This document shows positions 29,120 through 61,321 of a stretch of 61,321 nucleotides of DNA, one piece after another; the stretch's first letter is position 1, and the number at the start of each line of letters is the position of its first letter. Below the pieces are notes generated by a model. It had not been told where the DNA came from. It was given only the letters and a program-made list of their open reading frames with translations, and searched no databases. The translations under genes and the position numbers were made by a program. Source of the stretch: Verrucomicrobiia bacterium (lineage in GTDB: Bacteria; Verrucomicrobiota; Verrucomicrobiia; Limisphaerales; UBA11358); the NCBI GenBank assembly GCA_041482195.1, contig JBGPDH010000001.1, positions 1 to 61,321 on the forward strand, written 5' to 3'.

Positions 29120-29216
29120 AAAACATCGAACATTCAACATCCAACGCCCAACTTCCAAGAAATAGCACGCCGGCATTATCGGATGTTCGAGCTTGAATGT
29201 TGAATGTTGGGAGTTC
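29120..29216. repeat. Heptad-phased inverted repeat between the IscA-family and J-domain genes
   Basis: Left arm GAACATT CAACATC CAACGCC CAACTTC (29126-29157). Right arm GGATGTT CGAGCTT GAATGTT GAATGTT GGGAGTT (29181-29216). AACATTCAACAT pairs with ATGTTGAATGTT. Confidence 0.8.
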
Positions 29217-29229
29217 CCACCATCTCCAC

Positions 29230-29832: not shown

Positions 29833-30659
29833 AATGCCCGCAAAATCTGTGGCAAACAGCATCCCGGAGCGCAGACAGCCATGTCCGCGACCACACCGGC
29901 GGCAACTATTTGCGGACAAAGCTATCCGTGCTCCCATTTCAGAGGGATGGCACGACAAAAGTTGCAATTCGCCTACTTATTTGCGTGTGGCTATTTGCCA
30001 CAGGTTCGACCGGTTGGACACAAGAGACCTGGCAAGAGGCGTTAAGCCGGATGCCGTTGGGGACCAACACAACGGAGTTGAACCGGACGAATTGTGTAAC
30101 GCTGATGCTCGACACCTTTCAATCCAACGCCGTCGTGAAAGCGCTTGTTTTGATGCCGGGTGCCACGGACGAACTCTATTTCTACCGCAGGGTTCATGCG
30201 GCGTTGACCAACGCCCATCCGTCTTTGCTGGACGCGGTCGTGGCATTGACCAACCAGACTTACCTCCGGGCTACGTTTCAGTCCCCCTTGCTGTTGCTGC
30301 ACACGAGCGAAGACGCGCTCGAGGTCATCACGACGGTAAAAAACAAATCGACGGCAGCCAAACTCCGCAAAAAGCTGATTTCCGACCGGCTGGAATTTAA
30401 TGACGCCGGCTGGGACGAGCTGCGGGCGGTCTTGAATAAGAAAATGGGTGTTGGCCTGCGACCTTTTTCAAACTCACCGGAATCCGGGCATTTTTACCGC
30501 CACAATTTCGTGGCGTGTGGCGCGACGGAATGGGAAACGTTGGAAGCGATTGCCCTGACCGACAAAACCACATTCACGGTACACTGGTTGACCGTGCATT
30601 TTCAAATTGACGGGCGCAGCGGCATAGTGCCGGGAATCAAGAATCTCCAGGCGCCTTAA
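29829..30659 (+). CDS. Hypothetical protein, probably secreted
   Basis: Long ORF with a hydrophobic segment AIRLLICVWLFATGSTGW. The start is very uncertain, because the first ~45 codons overlap repeat-like DNA. Confidence 0.45.
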   Translation: MKCPQNLWQTASRSADSHVRDHTGGNYLRTKLSVLPFQRDGTTKVAIRLLICVWLFATGSTGWTQETWQEALSRMPLGTNTTELNRTNCVTLMLDTFQSNAVVKALVLMPGATDELYFYRRVHAALTNAHPSLLDAVVALTNQTYLRATFQSPLLLLHTSEDALEVITTVKNKSTAAKLRKKLISDRLEFNDAGWDELRAVLNKKMGVGLRPFSNSPESGHFYRHNFVACGATEWETLEAIALTDKTTFTVHWLTVHFQIDGRSGIVPGIKNLQAP

Positions 30660-36801: not shown

Positions 36802-36815
36802 CTGACCTTCATCGG

Positions 36816-39143: not shown

Positions 39144-39144
39144 T

Positions 39145-47086: not shown

Positions 47087-48904
47087 CTACAAATTCAAAG
47101 GGTTGCGCAGCACCGCTGAAACTCCAAAGGTGAACGTGCCGGAGGCATCTTCCGGATTGATCTGACCGGTCAGTTGTGTCGTTTTGGGATCAAAAAGGGA
47201 ACTCGTCTGCAATTCGTTCTCCAGCGTGTACGCGATGTCACTGTTCGCCGCCGGATCGACCTTGGACAAACTCACCGCCCGGCAAACCACGGAGATGGCG
47301 CCCGGCCTGGTGGATGAAGATTGGTTTTGCGCCGGGTTCATCGCTCCGCCGGCCAACTCGTTGTCCGACGGCACTCCGACCGGCATCCCCGGCCTGCCCG
47401 GGACGTTGGGCGCGGAGAGGGTTGTCCGCATGGTAATGAATTGTTCGATCCAAATTCCCGCCTGCACCCCCCCCCGCTGCGCAGACATTTTCTTTTGAAC
47501 ATCATTCTCAGCACGGATGAGCACCCGTCGCAAGTCCGCCAGGATATCACTCCAGTAATACCGATCGTTCATCCAGGCACTGATTTGTTCGGCTTGCTGC
47601 CGGGTGGCACCGACTTGCCCGTAAACCTTGTTGAACTGGTCGGCCTTGGTTTGCAGTTTTTGAACCTCCGGCTTGAGGCGTTCCAGCTCGTCCTCTTTCG
47701 ATATGGCCAGTTTTTCGAAGAGGAACCCGACCGCAAACGCCACCGCCACCAGACTGAACACCGTTGCCGTGAAATACGGTTTCTTTTCGTTGAAAGTGCG
47801 CCAGCGCAGCGTGCTCTCCGGCATCAGGTTCATTTCCACCGGACAGTTCGCCAGATTGCGCAGGCCCAGGCCGACAACTTCCCCCAGAGAATGGGCGACG
47901 CGCGCCAGTTCCTCCAGGTTCACCGCCGGATCGATCTGCACATTACGGAAGGGATTGAAGTATTCGACCGGCGCGTTCAGTTTCTCAGCAAAAAATTGCG
48001 CCGTATACGGCATGATGGAAGCCCCGCCGGCCAGGAAGAGCCGTTGCGGTGCCGCTCCGCCCATCTGGCCGCGATAAAACTGAATCGTCTGGTTGACCTG
48101 AATGTGCAGCTTGGTCATGAACTGCCGGGCAATCTTGGAAATCGCCGCCTGATTGGGATTCTCCGGTTCTTCGTAGGCACCGCCCAGACTGACGAAACCT
48201 TCAGCCACTTTGATTTGCTCGGCGACTTCAAATCTCAGCTTCGCCTCGTTCGCAAAATCCTGGGTGATGGAATTGGCACCCAGGTTGATGCTGCGGGCAA
48301 ACACTTTGCCTTTTTCGAAGAAGAGCAGGTTGCTGGTCTTGGCGCCGATGTCCAGCAACAGCGTGCAATCCTCCAGGTCCCCATAGTTGTAGCGAAATGC
48401 GTTGCAGAGCGCCGCCGGTGACACGTCGCACAATTGCAACCGCAACTTCGCCTCCTCGGCAATCCGGAACAATCCCTCCACAATCTCCGACTTGATGGCC
48501 ACCAACAACACTTCCAGTTCCCCCGTCGGACTCGAACCCAGAATTTGGTAGTCCCACACCACTTCCGCCAGCGGGAACGGCACATTCTGTTGCGCCTCGT
48601 ACTGGATGATTTGCGTCACCTTGCCCGCGTCCACCGGCGGGAGTTTGACGAATTTGGAAAACACCTGAAAACCGGGTGCGCAGACATTGATGTTCCGTGC
48701 TGCGCCGCCGGTTTCCGCCAGCGTTTCCCGCAGCACCTTGAGCAAGGCCGTTTCGCGCGAGGCGTCCGACGCCCCCTCCGGTCCCAATGACTTCAACTTG
48801 AAATTCTTCAGGCAGAGGATGCCGGCTTCGTTGATTTCAAAGATTGCCAGTTTGAGACTGCCGGCCCCGAAATCCACTGCCAAAAATGACTTTAAGTTAA
48901 GCAT
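47087..48904 (-). CDS. pilM: PilM-like actin-fold ATPase fused to a PilN-like TM/coiled-coil region (Amuc_1101-like)
   Basis: LAVDFGAGSLKLAIFE, LLLDIGAKTSNLLFF, LFLAGGASIMP, then a TM segment (YFTATVFSLVAVAFAVGFLF) and a coiled coil. An ATG start is chosen; a TTG at 48934 is also possible. Confidence 0.8.
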   Translation of the reverse strand: MLNLKSFLAVDFGAGSLKLAIFEINEAGILCLKNFKLKSLGPEGASDASRETALLKVLRETLAETGGAARNINVCAPGFQVFSKFVKLPPVDAGKVTQIIQYEAQQNVPFPLAEVVWDYQILGSSPTGELEVLLVAIKSEIVEGLFRIAEEAKLRLQLCDVSPAALCNAFRYNYGDLEDCTLLLDIGAKTSNLLFFEKGKVFARSINLGANSITQDFANEAKLRFEVAEQIKVAEGFVSLGGAYEEPENPNQAAISKIARQFMTKLHIQVNQTIQFYRGQMGGAAPQRLFLAGGASIMPYTAQFFAEKLNAPVEYFNPFRNVQIDPAVNLEELARVAHSLGEVVGLGLRNLANCPVEMNLMPESTLRWRTFNEKKPYFTATVFSLVAVAFAVGFLFEKLAISKEDELERLKPEVQKLQTKADQFNKVYGQVGATRQQAEQISAWMNDRYYWSDILADLRRVLIRAENDVQKKMSAQRGGVQAGIWIEQFITMRTTLSAPNVPGRPGMPVGVPSDNELAGGAMNPAQNQSSSTRPGAISVVCRAVSLSKVDPAANSDIAYTLENELQTSSLFDPKTTQLTGQINPEDASGTFTFGVSAVLRNPLNL

Positions 48905-49022
48905 TGCTGTGTTTGCGCCGTGCACTGCCGACAAAAGGGCGCTTGAACTTTTACCGTCTATAAGTACAGCCCGTGTTCAGTACTGTAAATTTTCTGGACG
49001 GTCAAACACAAAACTTGGAAAA

Positions 49023-49050
49023 TTGACTGTAGTAATTCTTGCAATAAAAT
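49023..49050 (+). promoter_or_regulatory. Sigma-70-like promoter candidate for the acylphosphatase/phosphoesterase genes
   Basis: TTGACT - 16 nt - TAAAAT, about 70 nt upstream of the ATG at 49119. Confidence 0.35.
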
Positions 49051-49118
49051 ATTGCGCCCCGGCGCAAGCTTTGGCTTTATCCCATCGTGTCGGGACAATC
49101 GCCGGTCGGCTGCCAAGC

Positions 49119-49397
49119 ATGAAGCGATGCCGCATGTGTATTTTTTACTCAGGCCACGTGCAGGGTGTCGGTTTTCGTTATACGGCGAAAACGGTGGCTG
49201 CCGGATTTGAAGTGACCGGCACGGTGCGCAATCTGCCGGATGGCCTGGTGGAGTTGACCGCCGAAGGTGCACGCGCTGAGCTCGAAGCCTTCCGTACGGC
49301 CATTCGGGATGCGGGGCTGGCCGGGTTGATCCGGGACGAGGCCATCACCTGGAGTGACGCGCAAAATGTAATGCATGGATTTGAGATCGTTCGATAG
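49119..49397 (+). CDS. acyP: Acylphosphatase
   Basis: GHVQGVGFRYTA ... GTVRNLPDGLVEL ... 92 aa. Confidence 0.9.
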   Translation: MKRCRMCIFYSGHVQGVGFRYTAKTVAAGFEVTGTVRNLPDGLVELTAEGARAELEAFRTAIRDAGLAGLIRDEAITWSDAQNVMHGFEIVR

Positions 49398-49403
49398 ACG
49401 CAA

Positions 49404-50126
49404 ATGAAATTCGCCATTATCGCCGACATTCACGGCAATCTGGAAGCGTTCCGGACCGTCCTGGCGGACGCCGAGCAACAGAAGCCCACCCATTACGTCT
49501 GCCTGGGGGACGTCGTGGGTTACAACGCCAACCCCAAGGAGTGCCTCGAAATCGTCCGCAGCATGGATATCCCCTGCGTGAAGGGAAACCATGACGAATA
49601 CTGCTCCACGGACGACCACCTGGAGGGATTCAATCCCAACGCCGCCGAAGCCGTGCGCTGGACGCGGGCGCAACTGTCCGACGAGGAACGCCAGTGGCTG
49701 CGCGACTTGAAATACACCAAACTGGTCAACAACTTTACCATCGTCCACGCCACGCTCGATGCGCCTCAGCGCTGGGGTTACGTCTTTGACAAACTGGCGG
49801 CCGCGGCCAGTTTTCCCTATCAAAACACCCAGCTCTGCTTCTTCGGCCACACGCATGTGCCGGTCGCCTTCATGCGCGACACCGTGGTGCGCGGCGGCAC
49901 CTATTCCAAATTCAAAATTGACCCGGCCAAAAAATATTTCATCAACGTCGGCGCCGTCGGCCAGCCGCGCGACAACAATCCCAAGGCCGCCTATGTCATT
50001 TACGACGCGGACGCCGGCACCATCGAACTGCGCCGCCTGGAATACGATATCGCCACCGCGCAGAAAAAAATCCGGGCCGCCGGTTTACCCGAACGCCTCG
50101 CCGAAAGGCTCGAAGTGGGAAGGTGA
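49404..50126 (+). CDS. Metallophosphoesterase (calcineurin-like, YfcE/MJ0936-type)
   Basis: IADIHGN, LGDVVGYN, GNHD, GHTH motifs. Confidence 0.88.
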   Translation: MKFAIIADIHGNLEAFRTVLADAEQQKPTHYVCLGDVVGYNANPKECLEIVRSMDIPCVKGNHDEYCSTDDHLEGFNPNAAEAVRWTRAQLSDEERQWLRDLKYTKLVNNFTIVHATLDAPQRWGYVFDKLAAAASFPYQNTQLCFFGHTHVPVAFMRDTVVRGGTYSKFKIDPAKKYFINVGAVGQPRDNNPKAAYVIYDADAGTIELRRLEYDIATAQKKIRAAGLPERLAERLEVGR

Positions 50127-50138
50127 TTTTTCAATCAG

Positions 50139-50216
50139 GGCCACAGATAAACACAGATTCGCACAGATGATTTCGTTTTAGTTTTTATCTGTTTTGATCG
50201 GTGTCAATCTGTGGCT
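50139..50216. repeat. Phased 10-nt CACAGAT repeat hairpin
   Basis: CACAGATAAA CACAGATTCG CACAGATGAT (50142-50171), then inverted ATCTGT (50187-50192) and ATCTGTGG (50207-50214). The outer stem is GCCACAGAT/ATCTGTGGC. Confidence 0.8.
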
Positions 50217-50224
50217 GCTAAAAA

Positions 50225-51241
50225 TTGAAAATTCTCATCCTCAAACCCAGTTCGCTGGGCGATGTCGTCCAGGCACTGCCGGTTCTGCGGCTCCTCAAAC
50301 ACCATTTGCCCGCCAGTGAAATTTTTTGGTGGATTGATTCCAGTCTTGCTCCCCTGCTCGAGGAGGATTCCGACCTGACCGGGATCGTCCGCTTTGAACG
50401 CCAACGCTGGGCTGCGCCCCGGCATTGGCCGGAGATGCTTTACAGTGTCCACTGGATGCGGGAACAGCATTTCGACTGGGTGATTGACCTCCAATGTCTG
50501 GCGCGCAGCGGGGCGTTCGCCTGGCTGGCCAACGGGAAATTCCTCATCGGCCTCGACGAAGTGCGCGAAGGGGCGCGCGGTTTTTACGACGTGGCCGTTC
50601 GCCGCGCCTCGTTCCACACGCACGCCGTGGACTGGTATCTGGCGGTGCTGCCCCGACTCGGGGTGCCCGTTCACAACCATTTTACCTGGTTGCCGGAAAG
50701 CCCTGCCGTAGCTGAGGCCGTCAAATCCAGGTGGCGAACAGATGGCGGCCGTTGGATCGCGATTCAACCCGGGGCTCGGTGGCCCAACAAACGTTGGCCG
50801 GCGGAATATTTTTCCGGGCTCGTCCGGCAATTGGCCCTCAAATTTCCCGATGCCCGTTTTGCCATACTGGGCGACCGGAACGACAAACCATCGGGTGGCG
50901 TCATTGCTCAGGCTGAACCGGAACGTTGTATCAATTTGTGCGGCCAGACCTCGCTTCGGGAAATGGTCGAATGGATCCGGTTATGCACTCTGGTGATCAC
51001 CAATGACACGGGTCCGATGCACGTCGCAGCGGCGTTGAGCAAACCATTGGTCGCCCTCTTTGGCCCGACCGAACCGCGCCGCACCGGTCCCTATGGACAA
51101 CTTCACAATGTGCTGCGAATTGATTTGCCCTGCTCGCCTTGTCTCAAATCCTATTGCACCTACGCGAAGCCGAACGAGTGCCTGAAAGCCCTGGCGCCGG
51201 CGGAGGTTTTTAAGTTCGCGTCCAGAAAACTTGCGGGCTGA
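50225..51241 (+). CDS. Glycosyltransferase family 9 (LPS heptosyltransferase-like)
   Basis: MKILILKPSSLGDVVQALPVL, and C-terminal ITNDTGPMHVAAAL. TTG start. Confidence 0.88.
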   Translation: MKILILKPSSLGDVVQALPVLRLLKHHLPASEIFWWIDSSLAPLLEEDSDLTGIVRFERQRWAAPRHWPEMLYSVHWMREQHFDWVIDLQCLARSGAFAWLANGKFLIGLDEVREGARGFYDVAVRRASFHTHAVDWYLAVLPRLGVPVHNHFTWLPESPAVAEAVKSRWRTDGGRWIAIQPGARWPNKRWPAEYFSGLVRQLALKFPDARFAILGDRNDKPSGGVIAQAEPERCINLCGQTSLREMVEWIRLCTLVITNDTGPMHVAAALSKPLVALFGPTEPRRTGPYGQLHNVLRIDLPCSPCLKSYCTYAKPNECLKALAPAEVFKFASRKLAG

Positions 51242-51247
51242 GCGGAC

Positions 51248-52054
51248 TTGCGCTTTGGCGGGTTCGCATTACGCTCGCCGCCGGTGAGTACTTCCTCCTC
51301 AGCGACACCACCCGGAACCACTTCACCCGGGGACCCGCCTCCCGCACAGTCGGTGTTCGTCACCACCCATTGGTCGGTGGTGTTGACGGCAGCCCGCAGC
51401 GACACCACCCGGGCCCGCGCCGCCCTCGAAAATCTTTGCCAGACTTATTGGCCTCCGCTTTATGCTTACGTGCGCCGACGCGGTTATTCGCCGGAGGACG
51501 CCCAGGACCTCACCCAGGAATTTTTTGCACGATTGCTGGAGCGCAACGCCGTGGCCACGGTCGCGCCGGAAAAAGGGCGGTTCCGTTCCTTCCTGCTCGC
51601 GAGCCTGAATCATTTCCTGGCCGACGAGTGGGACAAGGCGCGTGCGCAAAAACGGGGCGGCGGAAAGGTGATTTCATTGGACCTCCAAAGCGCCGAAACG
51701 CGGCTGGGAGAAGCGCCGGTGGAAAAGTTCACGCCGGAGAAAGCCTTTGAACATCGCTGGGCCATCACCCTGCTCGAACAGGTCTACCGGCGCCTGGGAG
51801 AGGAATATCGACAACAGGACAAAGCGACGTTGTTCGATACGCTGCGAGTCACGCTGGCTGGAAAGAGTGAAGCGGCTCCTTACGCGGAACTGGCACGGCA
51901 ATTGAAAATGAACGAAGGCGCCATAAAGGTGGCCGTGCACCGGCTGCGCCAGCGTTACCGGACCCTGCTGCGCGAGACCATCGCCGATACTGTGTCAGGT
52001 CCGGATGAAGTCGAAGATGAACTGCGTTATCTGTTCCGGACGCTGGCAGGGTAA
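51248..52054 (+). CDS. ECF-type sigma-70 family sigma factor, kinase-associated type, long N-terminal extension
   Basis: FVTTHWSVV, region 2 DAQDLTQEFFARLLE, region 4 YAELARQLKMNEGAIKVAVHRLRQRY. About 70% identical to 60512-61321. TTG start is conserved in both copies. Confidence 0.85.
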   Translation: MRFGGFALRSPPVSTSSSATPPGTTSPGDPPPAQSVFVTTHWSVVLTAARSDTTRARAALENLCQTYWPPLYAYVRRRGYSPEDAQDLTQEFFARLLERNAVATVAPEKGRFRSFLLASLNHFLADEWDKARAQKRGGGKVISLDLQSAETRLGEAPVEKFTPEKAFEHRWAITLLEQVYRRLGEEYRQQDKATLFDTLRVTLAGKSEAAPYAELARQLKMNEGAIKVAVHRLRQRYRTLLRETIADTVSGPDEVEDELRYLFRTLAG

Positions 52055-52061
52055 AAGCGTT

Positions 52062-52142
52062 CAATTCGTTAAACCGTTAAATCGGCTACCTTCAAGAGTG
52101 AGCTTCAGTTTAACGATTCAACCATTTAACGATTTAACGGAA
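52062..52142. repeat. Phased TTAAACG/CGTTAAA inverted repeat between the sigma and kinase genes
   Basis: CCGTTAAATCG (52074-52084) is perfectly complementary to CGATTTAACGG (52130-52140). Additional CGTTAAA/TTTAACG pairs flank it. Confidence 0.8.
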
Positions 52143-52192
52143 ACCTGTAACCTTTGGCCAATTCTTCCGTTGTATGGGGTGAAAGCAGAATT

Positions 52193-55100
52193 ATGGCCGA
52201 CAACAAAACATGTCCACATTGCGGAAAACCGGTTCCCCCCACGGCCCTGGGAGATCTTTGCCCCGAATGCATGCTCAAGGCCGGTCTGGCCACCCAGACC
52301 GAGGGACCGGGCGCAGCGGGTGAAGCCGCCGGCCCGCGATTCGTCCCGCCGCCGGTCGGAGAAATCGCCCGGCTCTTTCCGCAACTGGAAATTCTCCGCC
52401 TCATCGGCCAGGGCGGAATGGGGGCCGTTTACAAGGCGCGGCAACCGGCCCTCGACCGTTTTGTCGCACTGAAGGTGTTGCCGCCGTCAACGGCCGGTGA
52501 TCCGGGTTTTGCCGAGCGATTCAATCGGGAAGCGCGCGCCCTGGCCCGACTGAATCATCCCAACATTGTGGCGGTGCACGACTTCGGCAAAGCAGGCACA
52601 CTGCATTACCTGGTCATGGAGTTTGTAGATGGCGCAAACCTGCGCGAGGTGGAACGGCTCGGAGAATTAACGCCGGAACAGGCCCTGGCCATCGTGCCGC
52701 AAATCTGCGAGGCGCTCCAATTTGCCCACAACGAAGGAATCGTCCACCGCGACATCAAGCCGGAAAATCTTCTATTGGACAAAAAAGGCCGGGTGAAAAT
52801 CACCGACTTCGGCATCGCCAAGATGGTTGGCGTCGGCGCGAGCCCGCAGAATCTCACGGGGGCGAAGGACGTGGTGGGCACGCCGCATTACATGGCACCG
52901 GAGCAGATTGAAAAACCGCTGTCAGTGGACCATCGCGCGGACATCTATTCGCTCGGCGTCGTGTTCTACGAAATGCTCACCGGCGAACTGCCGCTGGGAA
53001 AATTCCAACCACCATCAAAGAAAGTTCAGATTGATGTGCGGCTGGATGAAGTGGTCCTGCACGCGCTGGAAAAGGAGCCGAATCGTCGTTACCAGCAGGC
53101 CAGCCAGGTCAAGACCGCCGTGGAGACGATCGTGACGACTCCAACCGGGGCAGGTCCCGTGTACCAAACGGAAGCAGTCACAACGGCGGCGCAGATCGAA
53201 GCGGTTCGCCAGCGCCTGAAAATTCCGGCACGCGGTTTGATTGCGGCCGGTGTGCTGCAAGTGCTTTTTGCCTTGGGGTTGCTGGTTGTCGCGATGCCGG
53301 CCATAGCCAGTGAGGGGGGCGGATTGGCCGGGTATGGCGCGGTCGGTTTCGGAGCCGCTTTGCTTGTGGTCGTGGCCTCGATCGTCTTCCTGGGCGCCAA
53401 CTCCATGAAGAAGTTGCGGAATTATCCGTTCAGCGTAGCCACGGGGATTGTGGCAGCCGTCACCGGACCGGCCGCAATTCTTGGCCTGCCTTTTGGCATT
53501 TGGGCGTTGGTGATTTTATTCCGTCGCGATGTGCGCGCGGCATTCGAGGCGAATCGTCTAGCAGGAAATAAAGTAACCCTGCTATCCGATGAAAATCAGG
53601 GCCGGTTCATGTCGTCTGCCGTATCACCATTTCGTCGCGGGGTATTGGCCGGTCTTTGGGTTTTCGTTCTGAGTGTCTTGGCGACCTCAATAATCACTTT
53701 TCTTCTGCCAAAAGCTTACGTCGGCGATGCACGGGTAAAAATAATCTCCGCTCCACCTTTACAAGATTACAACCCTTACCTCGTCCAGAATGAAATCCAA
53801 TTAATCCGTTCTATCGTGGTTCCCAAGGTTGCTGATGCTTTGAACCTATCCGAGCGATGGGGGAGGAGATTCGCGAACAGCCGAACCCTGACGCGCGACG
53901 AAACGTGGGGTTTGATGGAGCACAGCCTGGATATTGCGCCGGTCGGGAACACGATTTTGGTTGATGTGCGCTTTTACAGCCAATTCCCAAGGGAAGCGGC
54001 CGAGATCGCCAACAAAATTGCTGAAATTTACTGTACGCTTCCGCCGGGACATCGCGGAGAGATCGTGAGGCTGGCGGAACCCCCTTCCCGCCCCGTCAGA
54101 CCGAATGTTCCGCTGAACATTTTAATCGGTGTCGTAACGGGCGGCGTCATCGGCATTTTCACCGGCATAGCAACCGGATTGGTGTCTTTCTGGCGGAGAC
54201 GTCAGTTACCACCACCGGTTCACCAGCCCGATCGTTTCTGGCGGCGATTTGCCGTAACGGTGCTGGTCTTAATAATTTTAATTCCGGTTGCAATTACAGC
54301 CCTCCTCATCGTGCTTCAAATCGCCGCACAGTCTGTCATTAACCGATCAGCCGACAAACATAAACAGTCGATGAATGAACCGATCCGTTCCGACTACATC
54401 GGCCAAACCTGGTTTCCCCAGGGCGATTCGATTGAAATCACTTCGGTGGATCGAACGCCGGAAAAGATGGTGGTCAAAGGCCGTTACAACCTCGTCAGCC
54501 ACGATAACGCCTTGCTGGCACTCTATATCACTACTTCAACCAATAAGCCTGTTCCTGAAGACGCAAGCCAGCGGATGCAAATTTCGAAAGGACAGGGTGA
54601 TTTCGAATTGATTCATCCTTACCTTAAGAAAGCACTTCCGGGTTTGCCGCACGTTTCGATGTATGCCGACGGCCATCCCTTCGCCAGCCTCTATTTCGGC
54701 AACCAAGCCGAAGCACTGGAAGAAAGCAAGGCCGGTTGGGTCACAAATACGTCATCTGCTTCCACCCTCCAGTTTCGGCTTGTGCTTCCAACTGATTCAA
54801 CCGAACCGGCAGACTCGTTACCGTTGGCTTCCGGGCACGAGCGGCTTCAAATCTCGCGCGAGGTCCTGCTCGATGACTTCGCCATTGCTCAGGCTGGCGT
54901 GGATTTCAGCCCGGACGGAACGCGGAAGATCGAAATCTGTTTCACCGACACCGGCGCAAAAGAGTTTGAAGCCATTACGGCGACCAACATTGGACACCAA
55001 TTGGCGATTATCTTTCACGGCCGGGTACTGTCCGCCCCGGTGATTCAGTCGGTCATCACGGGAGGCCAATGTCAGGTAGATGGCTCAATGAATGCCAGCG

Positions 55101-55825
55101 AGATCGATCAAATCGTCGATTGCCTGAACCGGATTGCGACACCAACGGCCGAACCTCGGAATTTTTGTCCGGTTCACGAACAAATTCTCCCGTTCAATCC
55201 CCAACCGAAGGCCATGGTCAGCTGGCTGGATTTGGATTCGGGAGGGGTTTTTTTAACCAACCCAACGCTGGATTGGCAGAGCCGCTCCGGCCACGACTGG
55301 ATCCAAGCCCGTGGCCTGGATGTCGTCACGACCGAATCCGCCAAACATTTCCCGACCTTGTTGGGCATTGACCTGATCATCGCACCTGTGCCGACCAATG
55401 GATGGGATATTACAACTCCCGCCGATGTGATTCACAACTGGACACTGCTGCGGGAGGAGCCTCGGCAAATGCAGGTCTTTAGCGCCATGCCGGGGCAATT
55501 CGATACGTTTTTGTTTCAAACCCGGGAAGGCGGAAAAGGCATTCTGCAAATTCTCGGTTCTGCCGACAACCCGCCTGGCGTGAAGGTCCGCTATAAGCTG
55601 GTGCAGGCAACTAAATCCCGTGAAGCCATCGATCCGGCGACCGGCTTGCCTGTTCTTCTGCACAACCCGCGGACCGATCCCAGCACCGGACTCCCACTTC
55701 CTGCGGGCGCAACCAACATCGCCATCGATTCCGCCACCGGTCTGCCCCTGTCTCCCGGCGAAACCGGAGCCATTGACCCTGTTATTGGACTCCCCGTAGC
55801 TCCTGCCGCAACGAAGGGGCAATAA
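52193..55825 (+). CDS. Multidomain Hanks-type Ser/Thr kinase: zinc ribbon, kinase, polytopic TM, Wzz/PCP-like module, SecD-head-like domain, GLP-repeat tail
   Basis: CPHCGKPV ... CPECM. Kinase motifs GQGGMGAVY, VALK, HRDIKPENLL, DFG, YMAPE. PCP-like LPKAYVGDARVKI ... AAEIANKIAEIY ... PPSRPVRPNVPLNILIGVVTGGVIG. SecD-P1-like GHQLAIIFHGRVLSAPVIQSVITGGQCQVDG. Four D(P/S)xxGLP repeats at the C-terminus. Confidence 0.85.
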   Translation: MADNKTCPHCGKPVPPTALGDLCPECMLKAGLATQTEGPGAAGEAAGPRFVPPPVGEIARLFPQLEILRLIGQGGMGAVYKARQPALDRFVALKVLPPSTAGDPGFAERFNREARALARLNHPNIVAVHDFGKAGTLHYLVMEFVDGANLREVERLGELTPEQALAIVPQICEALQFAHNEGIVHRDIKPENLLLDKKGRVKITDFGIAKMVGVGASPQNLTGAKDVVGTPHYMAPEQIEKPLSVDHRADIYSLGVVFYEMLTGELPLGKFQPPSKKVQIDVRLDEVVLHALEKEPNRRYQQASQVKTAVETIVTTPTGAGPVYQTEAVTTAAQIEAVRQRLKIPARGLIAAGVLQVLFALGLLVVAMPAIASEGGGLAGYGAVGFGAALLVVVASIVFLGANSMKKLRNYPFSVATGIVAAVTGPAAILGLPFGIWALVILFRRDVRAAFEANRLAGNKVTLLSDENQGRFMSSAVSPFRRGVLAGLWVFVLSVLATSIITFLLPKAYVGDARVKIISAPPLQDYNPYLVQNEIQLIRSIVVPKVADALNLSERWGRRFANSRTLTRDETWGLMEHSLDIAPVGNTILVDVRFYSQFPREAAEIANKIAEIYCTLPPGHRGEIVRLAEPPSRPVRPNVPLNILIGVVTGGVIGIFTGIATGLVSFWRRRQLPPPVHQPDRFWRRFAVTVLVLIILIPVAITALLIVLQIAAQSVINRSADKHKQSMNEPIRSDYIGQTWFPQGDSIEITSVDRTPEKMVVKGRYNLVSHDNALLALYITTSTNKPVPEDASQRMQISKGQGDFELIHPYLKKALPGLPHVSMYADGHPFASLYFGNQAEALEESKAGWVTNTSSASTLQFRLVLPTDSTEPADSLPLASGHERLQISREVLLDDFAIAQAGVDFSPDGTRKIEICFTDTGAKEFEAITATNIGHQLAIIFHGRVLSAPVIQSVITGGQCQVDGSMNASEIDQIVDCLNRIATPTAEPRNFCPVHEQILPFNPQPKAMVSWLDLDSGGVFLTNPTLDWQSRSGHDWIQARGLDVVTTESAKHFPTLLGIDLIIAPVPTNGWDITTPADVIHNWTLLREEPRQMQVFSAMPGQFDTFLFQTREGGKGILQILGSADNPPGVKVRYKLVQATKSREAIDPATGLPVLLHNPRTDPSTGLPLPAGATNIAIDSATGLPLSPGETGAIDPVIGLPVAPAATKGQ

Positions 55826-55952
55826 ACACCTTCATCGCAGAAAAGTGGCCGGCAATGACTGTCTACGGCGATGGAAATAGATGGTCATTGGCGCGCAGCG
55901 GAGTATTACATCAAATGATTCAGTCAACTTAAATATAAACCAAAGAACGAGT

Positions 55953-56186
55953 ATGAAAGGTCCACTGCTGATTGCGTTTGTCACCGTCATCATCCTTCTG
56001 GCGGTCTGGGATGGCGTCTGGAAACTGATTGCCCTGTGGAAAAGCGCGCGCCACGACCAGTTGGCGTGGTTCATCTGCCTGGCCATCTTCAACACCGCCG
56101 GTATTTTGCCCATTCTTTACATTTTATTCTTTCAAAAAAATGGAACGCTATCACCGCCAATCCAGTATTCGAAGGGCGCAGCTTGA
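55953..56186 (+). CDS. Small two-TM membrane protein (DUF5652-like)
   Basis: MKGPLLIAFVTVIILLAVWDGVWKLIALWKSARHDQLAWFICLAIFNTAGILPILYILFF. The family name is from memory. Its stop codon lies inside the repeat at 56178-56190. Confidence 0.5.
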   Translation: MKGPLLIAFVTVIILLAVWDGVWKLIALWKSARHDQLAWFICLAIFNTAGILPILYILFFQKNGTLSPPIQYSKGAA

Positions 56187-56307
56187 CACTGCCCCCGATT
56201 CGGCCGCTGTAGTGGAGGAGCGCCGATCTACGATCCGGCGCCTTTCCGGGCAGTTTTTACCACCTGCCGGGTTGGAGACCGGCGCTCCAAGGCTAGTGTC
56301 AAGATGC
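56178..56307. mobile_element. MITE-like 130-nt element with 13-bp terminal inverted repeats
   Basis: GCAGCTTGACACT (56178-56190) versus AGTGTCAAGATGC (56295-56307) gives 12/13 complementary positions. The interior is made of GC hairpins. The right end matches 87-99 at the window start. No transposase is present. Confidence 0.55.
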
Positions 56308-56338
56308 GCCCATATTCGCAGAGAATGTAATTAAAAAG

Positions 56339-56367
56339 TTGACAGTTCGGCGTTATTTTGATAAAAA
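56339..56367 (+). promoter_or_regulatory. Sigma-70-like promoter candidate for the PEP-CTERM gene
   Basis: TTGACA - 17 nt - TAAAAA, about 70 nt upstream of the ATG at 56438. Confidence 0.35.
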
Positions 56368-56437
56368 ACGTCACGTCGGTTCGAAAGAACATCAATAATC
56401 GGGCAGATCGGATCTGCATAAAAACAAAGGGTTTACC

Positions 56438-57079
56438 ATGAAAGTAACCATAAAGACTATCGCTGGTTTGACGGGTCTTGCGGGACTCTTAATCGGATAT
56501 TCCGTATCAGCGGCCAACTTGATTCTCAATCCCGGATTCGAAACCGGTGATACGACCAGTTGGTCGGTGTTGGGTGCAAGCGATGGGTCTGCTTACGTTA
56601 ACGTGCAGTCGCCCAACAACGGCCCGTCAGCGCCTGGAACGTACGACGCGTATATGTACAATGTGATCCCGGCCGCCAATCTTGCGCTCCAACAGAGTAC
56701 AGCGCTGGGCGATGCCTCCCCAGGGTTGGTGAACTACTCATTTGATCTGAAGGTTGACAGTTCACTTAACGGTGGAGTGGTCTTCATTCATCTCTGGGAC
56801 ATCAATTCCACCGGCGGGGTGATCGATCAGGGACCGGGTCTGCTGGGCCCTTACTTCAATACCGGTTGGCAGACATATTCCGGTTCGTGGACCGCGCCGG
56901 CCAATGTAAATCACTTTGAAATCGAGTTTGATTGCACGACCGGCGCCGCCAGTGGCAGTGCCGAAGCCATTGAAGTTGACAATGTATCGCTGAGTCAGGT
57001 TCCCGAGCCGACGACCCTTGCTTTGGCGGCAATGGGGTTGCTTGGGGTCTGGACCTTTCGTCGCAGCCGGAAAGCCTGA
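56438..57079 (+). CDS. PEP-CTERM-anchored protein with a CBM4/9-like sugar-binding module
   Basis: Signal peptide, NLILNPGFETGDTTSWSV (CBM_4_9, PF02018-like opening), and C-terminal VPEPTTLALAAMGLLGVWTFRRSRKA (PEP motif, TM, basic tail). Confidence 0.88.
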   Translation: MKVTIKTIAGLTGLAGLLIGYSVSAANLILNPGFETGDTTSWSVLGASDGSAYVNVQSPNNGPSAPGTYDAYMYNVIPAANLALQQSTALGDASPGLVNYSFDLKVDSSLNGGVVFIHLWDINSTGGVIDQGPGLLGPYFNTGWQTYSGSWTAPANVNHFEIEFDCTTGAASGSAEAIEVDNVSLSQVPEPTTLALAAMGLLGVWTFRRSRKA

Positions 57080-57111
57080 GGCGCTTTGAAACCACTTAAC
57101 AGATGGCAACC

Positions 57112-57143
57112 AGAGCCTGTCATTACAGGCTCTTTGCTTTTTT
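57112..57143 (+). terminator. Rho-independent terminator
   Basis: AGAGCCTGT-catt-ACAGGCTCT followed by TTGCTTTTTT, 33 nt after the PEP-CTERM gene's stop codon. Confidence 0.75.
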
Positions 57144-57182
57144 CCCGACTACCCGTCGGGTGCAGTTGAGGTAACAACCACT

Positions 57183-60100
57183 ATGTATCCAATCGTTCGT
57201 GCAGCGCTCTGTCGGCGAGTCTTGGCGGGTGTCATGATGTTTATTCTTGGTACGGGCGTGGTCAACGCCCAGGTTCAGCTCCGGGTTCAGCCCGGAGTGC
57301 AGTTGAGCTGGCTCACGAACACGAAAGACACCTACCACCTGCAATGGTCGTCCAATCCCGTTGGTCTGTGGACGGATCTCATCGCGGTAACAGGCAATGG
57401 CACGACGAACACGGTTTTTGATCCCATCCCCGGCGGGACACGACTCTACCGGGTTTTGGACATTATTCCGGGTACCCCCGCAGTTCCTGGTAACCTGGTC
57501 ACGAATGGAGGGTTTGAAAACGGAAGCGGGGCCAACGCGAGTAATTGGTCCGTGGATACGGCTGTTGGCGGTCCGGTGTATGGAGTTCGCACGAACAACA
57601 ATCCGCACAGCGGTTCGTTTGACTTCCAGGTTTATCTGGCCAGCACCGGGGCCGGTCCAGTGGTTCAGTTTAACCAGTCCGGTATTCCCGTTACCGGGGG
57701 AACCACCTACCCGTTCACCTTCTACGCCAATGCCCTGACCGGCAGCGCGGGATATAACGCACAGTGGCGAATTCTGTGGAACGCCGGGGGAGACACCGGC
57801 TACCAAACTTTCAATCCTACAAACAACGCTTACGGCATGATCAGCAACTCCGTTACCACTCCCGCCGCCGCGACATCGGCGACGATCTACTTCCATTTTG
57901 CGGGCGCGGCGAGTCCGGGGGTGACATCCACGATTGACCTGGATGACGTCACACTCGGCAGCGGGAGTTCCAGTCCCGGAACCCCCGCAGTAACCAACAT
58001 TTTACAGCCAGCCACATTGCCGGTCGCACAAATCATTTGGCCGAGCATGTCGGGCATTTCGTATTATCCTGAATCGACCACCAACCTTGCCGCGGGGACC
58101 TGGACGACCAACTTCCCCATGGTCATGGGAGATGGCAGTACCAAGTCGTTCCTGACTCCGATGATTCAGAGCGTAACTTTTTTCCGTTTGCGAATCCCAC
58201 CGGTCGTTGTCCTGCCCCCGTCCAATCTGCAACAGGTTCCGTCGGGAACCACGAATGCCATCGGCCTGACCTGGAACGCCAGCACCTCGCCGGGTGTGAC
58301 CGGCTACAAAATCTTCTACGTTGAGACTAACAGCACGACGACTAATTCGGTCAACGTCGGCCTGGTCACCAGTACCGTGATCCCGGGATTGACTCCTGGC
58401 GATACGTATTCGGTATGGATTATTACCCTGAGCTCCAATGGTCCGAGTAATCCGTCCACCGCCATCCAGGTTCAGGTGACCAACAACAGCGGTGGCGTCG
58501 TGTGGTCAGACGAGTTCAACGGCTCTGCGGTCGATTCCGGCACATGGACTTATGACGTTGGCAATCAGGGTTGGGGCAATGGCCAATTGGAGTATGACAC
58601 CGCGCAACACGAGAATACTTACACGACGAATGGAAATCTGGTGATTGAGGCCGACCGCACGAATTATTGGGGGAACTCATTCACGTCCGCGCGCATTCGC
58701 ACCCAGGGACGATTCGCATTCAAGTACGGCACAATTGAAGCCCGCATCAAGATGCCGAATACAGCCAACGGCTTATGGCCGGCGTTTTGGATGATGGGCA
58801 ATAACGCCGGGGCCATCACCTGGCCAGGCTGTGGAGAAGTCGACATCGTCGAGTTGGGCTCCGCCGCCGGTATCGCTGCGGGGACTCAACAGAAACTGAT
58901 CGACTCAGCCGTGCATTACTCGAATGCCGCCGGGACCTATAGCAACTATGTTACCTGGGTGACGGCACCGGTTGACCTGAGCCTCGATTATCACCTTTAT
59001 AAGATGTCCTGGACGCCGACGACCATCACGTTTTATCTCGATGGTGCCGCCATCGGATCACTCGACATCACGGCGGATTATCTCAGCGAGTTTCATCAGC
59101 CGATGTTTCCGATCCTCAACATTGCCATCGGCGGCTATGACCCCTCGTACACCGGGGTGTACAGCCCCGGCGCCGTGACGGCGACGTTTCCGGCGAGGAT
59201 GTCTGTGGATTACATCCGGGTTACGGACAATGGGTATACGCAACTTTATTTCGGAGATAATTACGCGGAAAACGGCAGCTTTGGGGTTCTTACCGAAACC
59301 ACGCCAGTCAACGACTCCCTGACCTACAGAACCGGTTTGGAACCAAACTTTGCCTACGGAACCAATGCGGCCCTGTACATCTGGAACAACATGACCCCGA
59401 GCGCCAATCCGCCAGCTCCTTCCGAGGGAACCAACTCCTGGTCGTTCGATATCGCCGCCGGTAATTGGTTTGGCATGGGAGTTTTTCTGCCGAATTATCG
59501 CAATATGAAGAACTACTCCGACGGGTACCTTCACTTTGACATTCGCACCACCGCGGGGGACGCGACGCCCCTGCAAGTGGGAATCCAAAGTTGTGTGAGC
59601 GGACAATTGGCCGGTGATGCCGCCAACTTCTGGCTGCCGTTGGGAGCGGACCCGACATCGGAGTTCGGGTTTGCCCATGATGGCCAATGGCATTCGTTGA
59701 AAATCCCCTTAAACCGGTTCGCCAACGTCGATTTCCGCACAGTGAATCAGTTGTTCCAGATTTCAAGTGTCGTTAACCCGGCTTCGGCATTGAACCTGTC
59801 CATCGACAATGTCTGGTGGGAACCCAGCGCCACCCGGGTGAACCCTCAGAATGGAGATTTCGGGGTCTTCACCGAGACGCCGTCACACCAGAGCGCGGGT
59901 GCATTCGCCCTGGGTGTTCAAGGCAACTTTTTCGTCTGGGCGAACACAATGGTGCCCGCCACCCGACAGCCTTATGAGGGCACCAACGATATCAGTCTTG
60001 CCTCAGCCGGGGCCGGTTGGACGGGAATGGCCTTCACGCCGAACATTAAATACAATCTGACCGCCTTTAGTTACCCCGGCTGCAATCTGGAATTTACCAT

Positions 60101-60511: not shown

Positions 60512-61321
60512 TTGCGCTTTTCCCCGGTTGAGCTACGCTCGCCGTCGGTGAGCACTTCAACCCCAGCGACGCCGTCGGAATCCACTCCACCCGAAAACGT
60601 TGCGTCCCGGCAGCCGGTGTTCGTCACCACCCACTGGTCGGTCGTACTGACCGCCGGACGAACGGACACCACCCGCGCCCGGGCCGCGCTGGAACGGCTT
60701 TGCCAGACCTACTGGTATCCCCTTTACGCCTACGTGCGGCGGCGGGGAAATTCACCGGAGGATGCCCAGGACCTGACGCAGGAATTTTTCGCGCGCCTCC
60801 TGGAAAAGAATTGGATCGGCCGGGCCGACCAGCAACGGGGGCGGTTCCGTTCTTTCCTGTTGTCCGCCATGAACCATTTTCTGTCCGACGAATGGGACAA
60901 GGCCCGGGCGCAAAAACGCGGCGGGAATTTCGCCCACGTACCACTCGAGTTTGAAGTGGCGGAGACCCGTTACAGCCACGAACCGGTCGACCCCATCACG
61001 CCGGAACAGAATTACGAACGCCGCTGGGCCCTGACCCTGCTAGACGAAGTCCTGCGGCGGTTGCGTTCGGAGTTCGAACAGGACGGTCGGGGCGAGCTCT
61101 TTGCCACCTTACACCCTTGCCTCGTGGGCGACCGGAGTTCCCAGCCCTACGCTGAACTGGCCGTGAAACTGGGCATCAGCGAAGGCACCGTGAAGTCCGC
61201 CGTCCATCGTCTCCGCCAGCGTTATCGCCAGTTGTTGCGTGATGAAATTGCGCAAACCGTGGCCGTCCCCGGCGAAGTGGATGAGGAATTGCGGCATCTG
61301 TTCGTCGTGCTGGCAAGATAG
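60512..61321 (+). CDS. ECF-type sigma-70 family sigma factor, paralog of 51248-52054
   Basis: It has the same motif set (FVTTHWSVV, DAQDLTQEFFARLLE, AVHRLRQRY). The TAG stop is the last codon of the window. Confidence 0.85.
   Translation: MRFSPVELRSPSVSTSTPATPSESTPPENVASRQPVFVTTHWSVVLTAGRTDTTRARAALERLCQTYWYPLYAYVRRRGNSPEDAQDLTQEFFARLLEKNWIGRADQQRGRFRSFLLSAMNHFLSDEWDKARAQKRGGNFAHVPLEFEVAETRYSHEPVDPITPEQNYERRWALTLLDEVLRRLRSEFEQDGRGELFATLHPCLVGDRSSQPYAELAVKLGISEGTVKSAVHRLRQRYRQLLRDEIAQTVAVPGEVDEELRHLFVVLAR

Follow-up and report, generated by a model that had tools for sequence, protein, structure and literature searches.

The window considered here, i.e. the whole stretch of DNA that was analysed, comprises 61,321 nt of a Verrucomicrobiia bacterium (GCA_041482195.1, contig JBGPDH010000001.1, positions 1-61,321 of the forward strand). 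It comes from a metagenome bin, all sequence data used are metagenome assemblies, and the host of the kinase gene is an uncultured Verrucomicrobium. The locus consists of a gene for an ECF-type sigma factor (sigma1) and a gene for a receptor Ser/Thr kinase; next to it is a gene for a small membrane protein, DUF5652, which comes after the kinase in the orthologous loci as well (Table 1). A GT9 (heptosyltransferase-family) gene lies immediately upstream of the sigma-kinase locus and PEP-CTERM and GH16 genes are located downstream; all three, already listed as neighbours in the original prediction, were found by Pfam. A paralogous sigma factor gene (sigma2) ends at the contig end and is followed in relatives by a SHOCT protein and then by a second kinase (TM2 plus Malectin).

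The kinase ORF spans 52154-55825 (+) and, with its ATG at 52193, encodes 1210 aa. The same protein was called, identical, on a second contig (JGI/IMG), while the NCBI gene model begins at M27, by which the CxxC ribbon is truncated. From N to C terminus the protein is built of a CxxC...CxxC ribbon, a PknB-like Hanks kinase, a multi-span TM module, a two-TM cassette resembling polysaccharide co-polymerases (PCP), a third TM helix and a predicted periplasmic region, in which the beta-sandwich module D, a SecDF P1-head domain, module F and DPxTGLP repeats follow one another. The coordinates originally given for these parts were right to within a few codons, and the three homologies proposed then (Hanks kinase, PCP and SecD head) proved genuine by Pfam, family profiles and predicted fold.

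Table 1 Features of the sigma-kinase locus and of the contig end
Feature	Position (nt)	Strand	Evidence
ECF-type sigma factor sigma1	51284..52054 (ORF opens TTG 51248)	+	Pfam Sigma70_r2, NCBIfam TIGR02937
Imperfect inverted repeat / hairpin, sigma-kinase spacer	52063..52135	+	Arms 22 nt, 82% complementary
Promoter-like block TGTAACC-N15-CGTTGTA..., directly 5' of kinase ATG	52146..52192	+	Alignment of orthologous loci
Receptor Ser/Thr kinase gene, 1210 aa	52193..55825	+	ORF list, Pfam, hydropathy, second assembly
CxxC...CxxC zinc-ribbon-like motif, aa 7-27	52211..52273	+	Read in sequence; kept in 72/97 kinase-bearing relatives
Hanks-type kinase catalytic domain, aa 66-300	52388..53092	+	PF00069, motifs, PDB match
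Multi-span TM module, aa 335-462, motif GP-x4-GLP-x-G-x-W	53195..53578	+	Hydropathy, copy-number variation
Base-only PCP (Wzz/Wzc)-like cassette, aa 475-672	53615..54208	+	NCBIfam, family profile, AF2, Foldseek
Third TM helix, aa 684-712	54242..54328	+	Hydropathy; predicted model
Module D, all-beta Ig-like sandwich, aa 728-860	54374..54772	+	Relatives, predicted fold
SecDF P1-head-like domain, aa 883-974	54839..55114	+	PF22599, 3AQO profile, Foldseek
Module F, aa 990-1142	55160..55618	+	Comparison with relatives
Four D-[PS]-x-[TI]-G-L-P-[LV] repeats, Pro/Gly-rich C-terminal tail, aa 1147-1202	55631..55798	+	Read in sequence
DUF5652 small membrane protein	55881..56186	+	PF18893 E 5e-26
Paralogous sigma2, ends at contig end	60548..61321	+	ORF list, Pfam, alignment, relatives

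The N-terminal ribbon and full Ser/Thr kinase were as predicted. The ribbon cysteines are arranged as C7-x2-C10...C24-x2-C27, and the catalytic domain reaches 184.7 bits with PF00069 (E 2.7e-54, cut-off 31.7), with the G-loop GQGGMGAV, VALK, HRDIKPEN, DFG and APE motifs all intact. Its top PDB match is PknB (E 8e-58), and NCBIfam NF033483 matches the kinase part only (E 6e-92). Receptor kinases of the PknB/StkP type thus possess the closest catalytic domain and follow the same receptor-kinase logic; unlike them, the present protein carries no PASTA repeats, is polytopic in its membrane part and has a putatively dedicated sigma partner.

Hydropathy points to TM segments at aa 346-370, 378-402, 412-445, 484-505, 640-666 and 684-712. 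The multi-span TM module, for which no Pfam family was found, occurs between kinase and cassette in 0, 1 or 2 copies among relatives, so the number of its spans must be even. The third TM helix is preceded by a conserved basic loop, K-P-D-R-F-W-R-R, and two loops rich in R/K (aa 444-482 and 667-683) are consistent with the positive-inside rule. We infer a topology in which ribbon and kinase would be cytoplasmic, the even-span module would bring the chain back to the cytoplasm, the cassette would make one loop into the periplasm, and the short basic loop with the third helix would place the C-terminal sensor region of ~500 aa in the periplasm.

The cassette is composed of TM1, a ~130-aa alpha/beta periplasmic domain, a proline-rich P-x-R-P-x-R-P-N motif and a glycine-rich TM2. 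In the 1210-aa protein itself PF02706 (Wzz) gave no Pfam match at E<=0.1 and GNVR (PF13807) stayed under its cut-off (E 0.024), while NCBIfam returned two sub-threshold matches, one to the EpsF chain-length determinant (E 1e-7) and one to CpsC-type MPA1 (TIGR01006, E 2e-4). Wzz profile matches, on which the original prediction was to stand or fall, are found at the family level, although not with the protein itself: among 16 homologous cassette segments, Wzz was matched by 14 (best 1e-6) and GNVR by 11 (best 6.5e-8). When a profile of the cassette segments was compared with the PDB, the sole find was Wzc (E 9e-10; the next, unrelated match had E 0.5), with which the segments align in the same order both around TM1 and around pre-TM2/TM2 (colinear). 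The AF2 model (pLDDT 82.9) has the order beta-alpha3-beta2-alpha-beta between two long helices, and its top Foldseek matches were Wzc, KpsE and WzzE, each with probability 1.0. Profiles and predicted fold together support homology of the cassette, predicted at nt ~53627-54199, to the polysaccharide co-polymerase superfamily, its own sequence being below the curated threshold.

It is with their helical hairpin that PCP/Wzc proteins reach Wza, and chain-length control is connected with this part. This periplasmic element (~230 aa) is absent here, as only ~130 aa lie between the two TMs and the model has no long helices in between. Canonical PCP-2a proteins of ~730 aa from the same phylum possess the hairpin, and the cassette matches them in two pieces ~230 aa apart. 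After TM2, where Wzc carries its kinase, there is an 18-aa basic loop and then the third TM; Pfam found no AAA_31, CbiA or ParA in the 1210-aa protein, and matches of these types are present in proteins of loci L013, L016 and L029. The cassette is also known on its own, its hairpin then measuring between 0 and ~200 aa, and it is fused to kinases in 56 of the 143 top representative clusters. Besides the sigma-kinase locus, the Pfam scan covered 20 genes of the window, namely DUF5652 and 19 of the remaining 24 non-overlapping ORFs >=200 aa, which with the locus make up ~52 of 61 kb; five long ORFs (about 29.2-30.7 and 48.7-50.1 kb) and shorter ORFs lay outside it. In none of these 20 genes did the scan detect Wza, Wzx, Wzy, an exosortase or a BY-kinase. 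Since the hairpin is absent, no export or polymerase genes occur among the genes scanned, and the cassette is found also alone or fused to kinases, the most likely candidate role of the cassette is that of a scaffold embedded in the membrane, which would serve oligomerisation and anchoring and derive from proteins of the Wzc type, and not of a chain-length regulator.

Wzc (PCP-2a; E. coli K30, PDB 7NHR), which is both the best profile match and the best fold match, shares with the cassette TM1, the alpha/beta base next to the membrane, the proline-rich motif before TM2 and the glycine-rich TM2, as well as the attachment of a kinase to a PCP. The cassette lacks, besides the hairpin, the P-loop BY-kinase and the tyrosine cluster of Wzc, and the kinase is of Hanks type and N-terminal to TM1. 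PCP-2b proteins are two-TM proteins with a short extracytoplasmic loop, of a size similar to the cassette, and exist as separate polypeptides activating a BY-kinase via their C-terminal tail. The weak TIGR01006 match is to this group (CapA/CpsC type), unlike which the cassette forms an inner part of a Hanks kinase protein, with a further TM helix behind it.

In the C-terminal region the SecD-head identity of aa 883-974 is unambiguous, as judged by profile and fold comparison, and agrees with the P1-head-like segment proposed for nt ~54764-55138. PF22599 scores 65.6 bits (cut-off 27), profile comparison with T. thermophilus SecDF P1 (3AQO) gives E 1e-18, and Foldseek returned 3AQO and 5YHF at 37-39% identity, the latter with an rmsd of 2.4 A over 87 residues; taken together, identity to the SecDF P1 head (3AQO / 3AQP) amounts to 37-45% over ~87-100 residues. 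The Pfam family SecD_SecF (RND-like 6+6 TM body) gave no match on the protein, and the SecD/SecDF models of NCBIfam match the head region only, with scores far under the equivalog cut-offs. Unlike SecDF, the protein has no P1 base, 12-TM body or proton pathway; the head stands alone within the sensor region. P1 heads are known as separate proteins, too, of 150-240 aa. No Pfam family was found for module D, which is shared more widely in the family than any other module (100 copies among 120 listed relatives, some proteins having two), or for module F, of which one relative has up to three copies. The Pro/Gly-rich tail is common to other paralogues. The AF2 model of the C-terminal region is poor (pLDDT 46.7), which leaves modules D and F ill-defined and makes any ligand conjectural.

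Sigma1 exceeds the cut-offs of TIGR02937 (52.9 vs 42.9 bits) and Sigma70_r2 (33.8 vs 24); for Sigma r4_2, sigma2 passes the threshold and sigma1 gives a weak match. GTG 51284 is its likely start, because conservation is codon-wise, with synonymous changes, from this GTG on and frame-breaking indels occur upstream. In an alignment of 18 family sigmas the S/T/P-rich N-terminal tail is conserved and the F-x-T-T-H-W motif invariant, and the sigma-2.2 position reads DAQD in sigma1 and DAQD, DAED, NAQD or SAKD/SARD across the family. No anti-sigma domain was recognisable in the locus by Pfam. The proposed pairing with an ECF sigma held in the survey: in all 15 kinase-PCP loci with both flanks available an ECF-type sigma of the same family adjoins the kinase, upstream in nine and downstream in six, and the genomic contexts are of at least two kinds. 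Directly in front of the kinase, the promoter-like block aligns in all six orthologous loci, the remaining spacer being unalignable; in the loci its pattern is found at that site only, and it has one exact occurrence in the window. It may represent an ECF-type -35/-10 promoter.

We consider the protein to be a Hanks Ser/Thr kinase of receptor type whose dedicated partner is the adjoining ECF-type sigma, the two being one pair out of a large family of paralogous Verrucomicrobial pairs, and give this reading, which draws on sequence, predicted models and analogy, a probability of roughly 0.6. The C-terminal modules would bind a periplasmic cue, which the P1-head homology suggests to be an exposed or unfolded polypeptide rather than a glycan; the P1 head subdomain of SecDF contacts the translocating polypeptide. 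The cue could alter how the membrane part packs or oligomerises and lead to trans-autophosphorylation of the kinase, which would then phosphorylate sigma1, candidate acceptors being its conserved N-terminal tail, rich in S/T, and its invariant TTHW motif. Sigma1 would then bind RNA polymerase and transcribe its targets, probably including the kinase gene, from the promoter-like block.

The original prediction was that of a functional Wzc analogue, in which a Hanks kinase replaces the BY-kinase and would report polysaccharide polymerisation or export, or PEP-CTERM cargo status, to the sigma factor. Of it the PCP homology and the sigma pairing stand; the cassette is recognisably akin to the phylum's own PCP-2a proteins, and the position of GT9 immediately upstream, with PEP-CTERM and GH16 downstream, would suit such a function. 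Nevertheless, we regard it as unlikely, for the kinase comes before TM1 of the cassette and not, as expected for a Wzc analogue, after TM2, the hairpin is missing, the export and polymerisation genes do not occur among those scanned, and the cassette is interchangeable, being exchanged between near-identical loci. The suggested coupling to PEP-CTERM or polysaccharide also loses ground outside the window, as PEP-CTERM and GH16 are relocated or missing in related loci, and the more distant of the kinase-PCP loci have unrelated neighbours, e.g. UbiA, a flavoprotein or an amidase.

It is likewise doubtful that the adjacency reflects co-regulation only, sigma1 driving the kinase gene or sharing an operon with it, with other substrates for the kinase and another control for the sigma. 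The ECF-like promoter block upstream of the kinase, the conserved DUF5652 gene downstream and the acidic sigma-2.2 motif, with which sigma1 may be intrinsically active, can be read in this way, but the adjacency survives gene-order flips and changes of context, as is typical of interacting partners, no anti-sigma domain is recognisable in the locus, and a one-sigma-one-kinase pairing recurs for the second pair in relatives. It seems highly improbable that the architecture arose by chimeric assembly or belongs to a pseudogene in decay. The source is a metagenome bin, the highly repetitive family does invite mis-assembly, and the L001 orthologue has frame breaks in its kinase part; yet the 1210-aa ORF is unbroken with catalytic motifs intact, the identical protein occurs on a second contig from another source, and colinear full-length relatives with conserved flanking synteny are known from many independent samples.

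The receptor kinase-sigma reading has its nearest precedents in PknT/EcfP of Vibrio parahaemolyticus and PknS/EcfK of Xanthomonas citri, where a TM Hanks kinase gene likewise adjoins an ECF-type sigma without recognisable anti-sigma and the kinase phosphorylates the sigma factor directly (PMC8999054, PMC13147305). In their group, ECF43, the acidic DAED of sigma-2.2 is missing and a phosphorylatable S/T is found instead (PMC8999054). Sigma1 lacks this feature of ECF43, the group named as an example in the original prediction, as it retains the acidic DAQD, and the ECF43 mechanism, with phosphate supplying the missing negative charge, need not apply. The present pair further differs in the S/T/P-rich N-terminal tail and TTHW motif of the sigma and in the far larger multi-module sensor of the kinase, and its phosphorylation step is a candidate one. 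Similarity is seen also to ECF59-62 and ECF217 of Planctomycetes and relatives, from the PVC superphylum, for which kinase pairing is predicted from synteny (Casas-Pastor 2021, PMC7826278); these STK-associated groups often keep the acidic sigma-2.2 motif (PMC8999054). Direct phosphorylation of the sigma by the adjoining kinase is predicted for several Planctomycete-type ECF groups (PMC7826278). The group descriptions consulted make no mention of PCP-like or SecD-head kinases.

The mosaic make-up of the family, like the domain map and the sigma adjacency, is an observed feature. In the closely related locus L006 the DNA is 95.6% identical in the upstream flank and 88.8% through sigma, kinase and TM module, is not alignable in the cassette, which is replaced outright, and resumes at 78% identity after the cassette and 90% downstream; moreover, the nearest relative differs from module to module of the kinase. 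Based on these identity breaks and differing relatives, the sensor repertoire appears to diversify by whole-module exchange among paralogues. The best reading of the kinase is that of an uncharacterised variant of the known Hanks kinase-sigma signalling scheme, from an expanded, cassette-shuffling Verrucomicrobial family.

The inverted repeat of the sigma-kinase spacer folds as RNA with a z of -2.6 and has no U-tail. Orthologous loci have a hairpin of other sequence in the same place, with z from -1.8 to -3.7, the value for the closest locus, L006, being only -0.9.

The 1210-aa protein is best explained as a receptor Hanks kinase dedicated to the neighbouring ECF-type sigma factor, whose gene lies directly upstream. 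Its protein kinase domain is complete (aa 66-300, Pfam E 2.7e-54), the full set of Hanks catalytic motifs is intact and PknB is the nearest solved kinase, all of which bears out the Ser/Thr kinase assignment of the original prediction. The proposed pairing with an ECF sigma also held: among 18 kinase-PCP loci surveyed, every one of the 15 with both flanks present carries an adjoining sigma gene, nine upstream and six downstream of the kinase, and the three loci without sigma each run into a contig end on one flank. The pairing persists across genomic contexts, at least two of which are unrelated. Direct phosphorylation of a sigma factor by the adjacent Hanks kinase is known for the PknT/EcfP and PknS/EcfK pairs (PMC8999054, PMC13147305) and has been predicted for several other ECF groups (PMC7826278).

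The window is an entire contig of 61,321 nt from a metagenome bin, and all its relatives likewise are Verrucomicrobial bins; the identical 1210-aa sequence was called on a second contig of different source (JGI). The NCBI gene model begins at M27 and thereby cuts the conserved CxxC...CxxC ribbon (window 52193-52270), which the JGI model of the same gene retains and 72 of 97 kinase-bearing relatives share. At the orthologous locus L001 (7484-8001) the kinase domain is broken across three frames, so that this copy is a pseudogene or else misassembled.

Comparison of four sigma paralogues and orthologues revealed codon-wise conservation with synonymous changes from the GTG at 51284 and frame-breaking indels upstream of it, so the protein probably begins MSTSSSATPPGTTSPG... 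with an S/T/P-rich tail. Both sigma paralogues of the window probably start at a GTG located 36 nt within the listed ORF (51284-51352 and 60548-60616). Such a tail, together with an invariant F-x-T-T-H/Q-W motif, occurs in 18/18 family sigmas, and both provide candidate phospho-acceptor sites. The sigma-2.2 motif of these 18 proteins reads DAQD, DAED, NAQD or SAKD/SARD, thus its acidic character is largely retained, in contrast to ECF43 sigmas, where the acidic motif is missing (PMC8999054). The best PDB match of the sigma reached only E 0.007.

The coordinates of the features and the identities of the individual segments to related loci are collected in the table.

Features of the sigma-kinase locus; positions refer to the window unless a related locus (L001-L007) is named. 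L006 is the closest orthologous locus; amino-acid identities were determined against the window for the orthologous locus in seven species.
Feature	Position	Strand	Property
Kinase ORF	52154-55825	+	ATG at 52193, 1210 aa
Four D-[PS]-x-[TI]-G-L-P-[LV] repeats (DPxTGLP)	55631-55798		C-terminal tail
Imperfect hairpin	52063-52135		directly after sigma stop codon; no U-tail
~47-nt block TGTAACC-N15-CGTTGTA...	52146-52192		directly upstream of kinase ATG
TGTAACC-N15-C[GT]TT block	L001 7479-7504		
TGTAACC-N15-C[GT]TT block	L002 4230-4255		
TGTAACC-N15-C[GT]TT block	L003 4015-4040		
TGTAACC-N15-C[GT]TT block	L004 4898-4923		
TGTAACC-N15-C[GT]TT block	L006 4556-4581		
TGTAACC-N15-C[GT]TT block	L007 4898-4923		
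Upstream flank	47625-51231		95.6% DNA identity to L006
Sigma, kinase, TM module	51350-53606		88.8% DNA identity to L006
Cassette	53607-54380		unalignable with L006 DNA
Post-cassette	54381-55830		78% DNA identity to L006
Downstream	55872-59626		90.2% DNA identity to L006
Metallophosphatase			94-100% amino-acid identity
Sigma			~90% amino-acid identity in 6/7 species; 59% in L005
Kinase domain			59-98% amino-acid identity
PCP cassette			45-72% amino-acid identity
Modules D, SecD head, F			present or absent

Behind the kinase domain and a TM module (aa 335-462) lies a two-TM cassette (aa ~475-672), which had been proposed to be a Wzz/PCP-like module. The full-length kinase protein gave no match to the Pfam Wzz model at E<=0.1, and its NCBIfam chain-length determinant matches were sub-threshold (EpsF 1e-7, CpsC-type 2e-4). 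A family alignment of 16 members, consisting of aa 460-700 and 15 homologous segments, was informative at the family level: Wzz is matched by 14 of its members and GNVR by 11, and its profile hits solely Wzc chains in the PDB (E 9e-10), the next matches being unrelated (E 0.5). The Wzc match is colinear, with TM1 and the first strand corresponding to Wzc 35-117 and the pre-TM2 motif with TM2 to Wzc 408-449. The AF2 model of the region (pLDDT 82.9) comprises TM1, a compact beta-alpha-alpha-alpha-beta-beta-alpha-beta domain, TM2 and TM3, and its top structural matches are Wzc, KpsE and WzzE with probability 1.0. Since scans across the family, profile and fold all agree, the homology of the cassette to PCP proteins is genuine.

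The original prediction went further and regarded the protein as a Wzc analogue, in which a eukaryotic-like kinase takes the place of the BY-kinase. As the PCP homology on which it was built is genuine, this model retains a low probability, but it is weakened on several grounds. The order of domains is reversed. Canonical PCP-2a proteins of the same phylum (~730 aa, with Wzz, GNVR and P-loop kinase) align to the cassette over about residues 35-175 and again over 405-445, and the ~230-aa helical hairpin that separates these two stretches has no counterpart in the cassette, which is thus the PCP base only. Polysaccharide assembly genes were not found nearby: of the 24 further non-overlapping window ORFs of at least 200 aa, 19 were scanned along with DUF5652, and domains of Wza, Wzx, Wzy, an exosortase or a BY-kinase were found in none of these; five long ORFs (29197-30659, 48687-50126) and all shorter ones lay outside the scan. 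The neighbouring genes are also variable, with PEP-CTERM and GH16 genes changing position or missing in related loci, and the cassette itself is interchangeable, as detailed below. The locus accordingly corrects the appealing but unsupported notion of a Wzc with a eukaryotic-like kinase, and the dedicated receptor kinase remains the better-supported reading.

The C-terminal part contributes a second domain of envelope machinery. The predicted SecD P1 head was confirmed at aa 883-974 (Pfam, 65.6 bits at a cut-off of 27), and the profile of aa 716-1145 matches P1 of T. thermophilus SecDF at E 1e-18, with ~45% identity over 87 residues, in agreement with the fold search. Homologue search with the SecD-head profile returned short proteins only; stand-alone P1-head proteins of 150-240 aa occur in several phyla, which argues that the P1 head is a mobile domain. 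The AF2 model of aa 716-1145, built with 13 closely related sequences, was of low quality (pLDDT 46.7), and the only matches that Foldseek drew from it were the SecD head and, for module D (aa 728-860), a generic Ig-like one; module D is predicted with moderate model confidence to be an all-beta Ig-like sandwich. Modules D, F (aa 990-1142) and the TM module match no Pfam family. For the end of module F, a weak profile match to TRAP/MtrB (E 1e-4) found no support in other evidence and was dropped. The DPxTGLP-repeat tail matches no known family either and is common to paralogues of otherwise different architecture.

Hydropathy places TM segments at aa 346-370, 378-402, 412-445, 484-505, 640-666 and 684-712. 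Relatives carry zero, one or two copies of the TM module between kinase and cassette, from which it follows that the module has an even number of membrane spans. Taken together with the Arg/Lys-rich loops at aa 444-482 and 667-683, this would make the kinase cytoplasmic and both the PCP loop and the C-terminal ~500 aa periplasmic.

The modules occur in many combinations across the kinase relatives. Module F is present three times within one kinase gene (L004 4903-10047), and the TM module twice in L001 (7791-11675) and in several other relatives. At the orthologous locus, amino-acid identity to the window differs sharply between genes and modules. The cassette with TM3 (53607-54380 vs L006 6017-7312) is the sole part unalignable at the DNA level, the flanks being 78-96% identical; as point mutation cannot yield such a pattern between genomes this close, the cassette must have been replaced, and the comparison suggests recombination with a divergent paralogue as the route. 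Searching 1.84 billion representatives with the cassette profile gave 22,734 proteins at E<=1e-3, while the stricter E<=1e-30 left 586 representative clusters, the best 143 of which include 56 kinase fusions and 69 short stand-alone PCP-like proteins with a hairpin ranging from none to ~200 aa. Many stand-alone PCP-like proteins of 205-450 aa, seen among P0200-P0325, show the same hairpin range, from zero to about 200 aa, and some bear an N-terminal prefix (HREEYG...QLFRDQ) resembling the 'permease prefix' domains of other phyla.

In the proposed mechanism the PCP-like cassette would act as a membrane scaffold inherited from Wzc-type proteins, and the ligand would be bound by the C-terminal modules, among them the P1-head-like domain. 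A bolder version, which we consider unlikely though worth stating, is that the hairpin-less cassette assembles Hanks kinases into a Wzc-like membrane ring with ring-controlled trans-phosphorylation, and that the whole family is a combinatorial receptor repertoire, whose sensor cassettes (PCP base, TM module, Ig-like D, SecD head, module F) swap between paralogues through recombination at loci that are otherwise conserved. If true, it would represent a bacterial route to fast diversification of receptor kinase/sigma pairs. The locus itself does show replacement of a cassette between near-identical loci, and this would account for diversification of such receptor families. The signalling scheme is already known, while the sensor architecture and cassette exchange are not: in the literature searched, of incomplete coverage, we found no paper describing a Hanks kinase whose sensor is PCP-like or a SecD head, and neither domain is listed in the searched supplementary text of a PVC kinase survey. 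Signalling from Hanks kinase to ECF sigma has so far been demonstrated for only a few ECF43 pairs, with poorly understood sensors, and the locus adds a large candidate Verrucomicrobial branch to it. Recruitment of two envelope-machinery domains, PCP base and SecD P1 head, into a receptor allows hypotheses on the cue sensed and on receptor assembly.

The TGTAACC block is conserved in six of six orthologous loci, the remaining spacer being unalignable, and its exact pattern has no further occurrence in the window or in the other loci. It may be an ECF-type promoter, in which case the sigma would drive expression of the kinase. As a mark of a wider regulon the pattern gave two one-mismatch sites elsewhere in the window, within chance expectation, and a generic scan for sigma-70 promoters and terminators remained at chance level. 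The hairpin after the sigma gene is found at the same position in L002, L003, L004, L006 and L007, in two sequence groups (TTAACG-type and CACG-type); the stem-loop is kept in most loci with z of -1.8 to -3.7, and only -0.9 in L006.

Close relatives share the gene order PilM, acylphosphatase, metallophosphatase, GT9, sigma, kinase, DUF5652, second sigma, SHOCT protein and second kinase, the last carrying TM2 and Malectin domains. The gene after the kinase encodes the DUF5652 small membrane protein (window 55881-56186), as it does in four (L001, L002, L004, L006) out of seven GTDB orthologous loci examined and on two more contigs from JGI. Elsewhere in the window, three consecutive large ORFs without Pfam family (33898-41148, minus strand; 967, 775 and 667 aa) lie ~1-6 kb from a type IV pilus-like cluster that comprises a secretin fragment, a TPR protein and a PilM-like fusion; a 5'-3' exonuclease gene separates the two.
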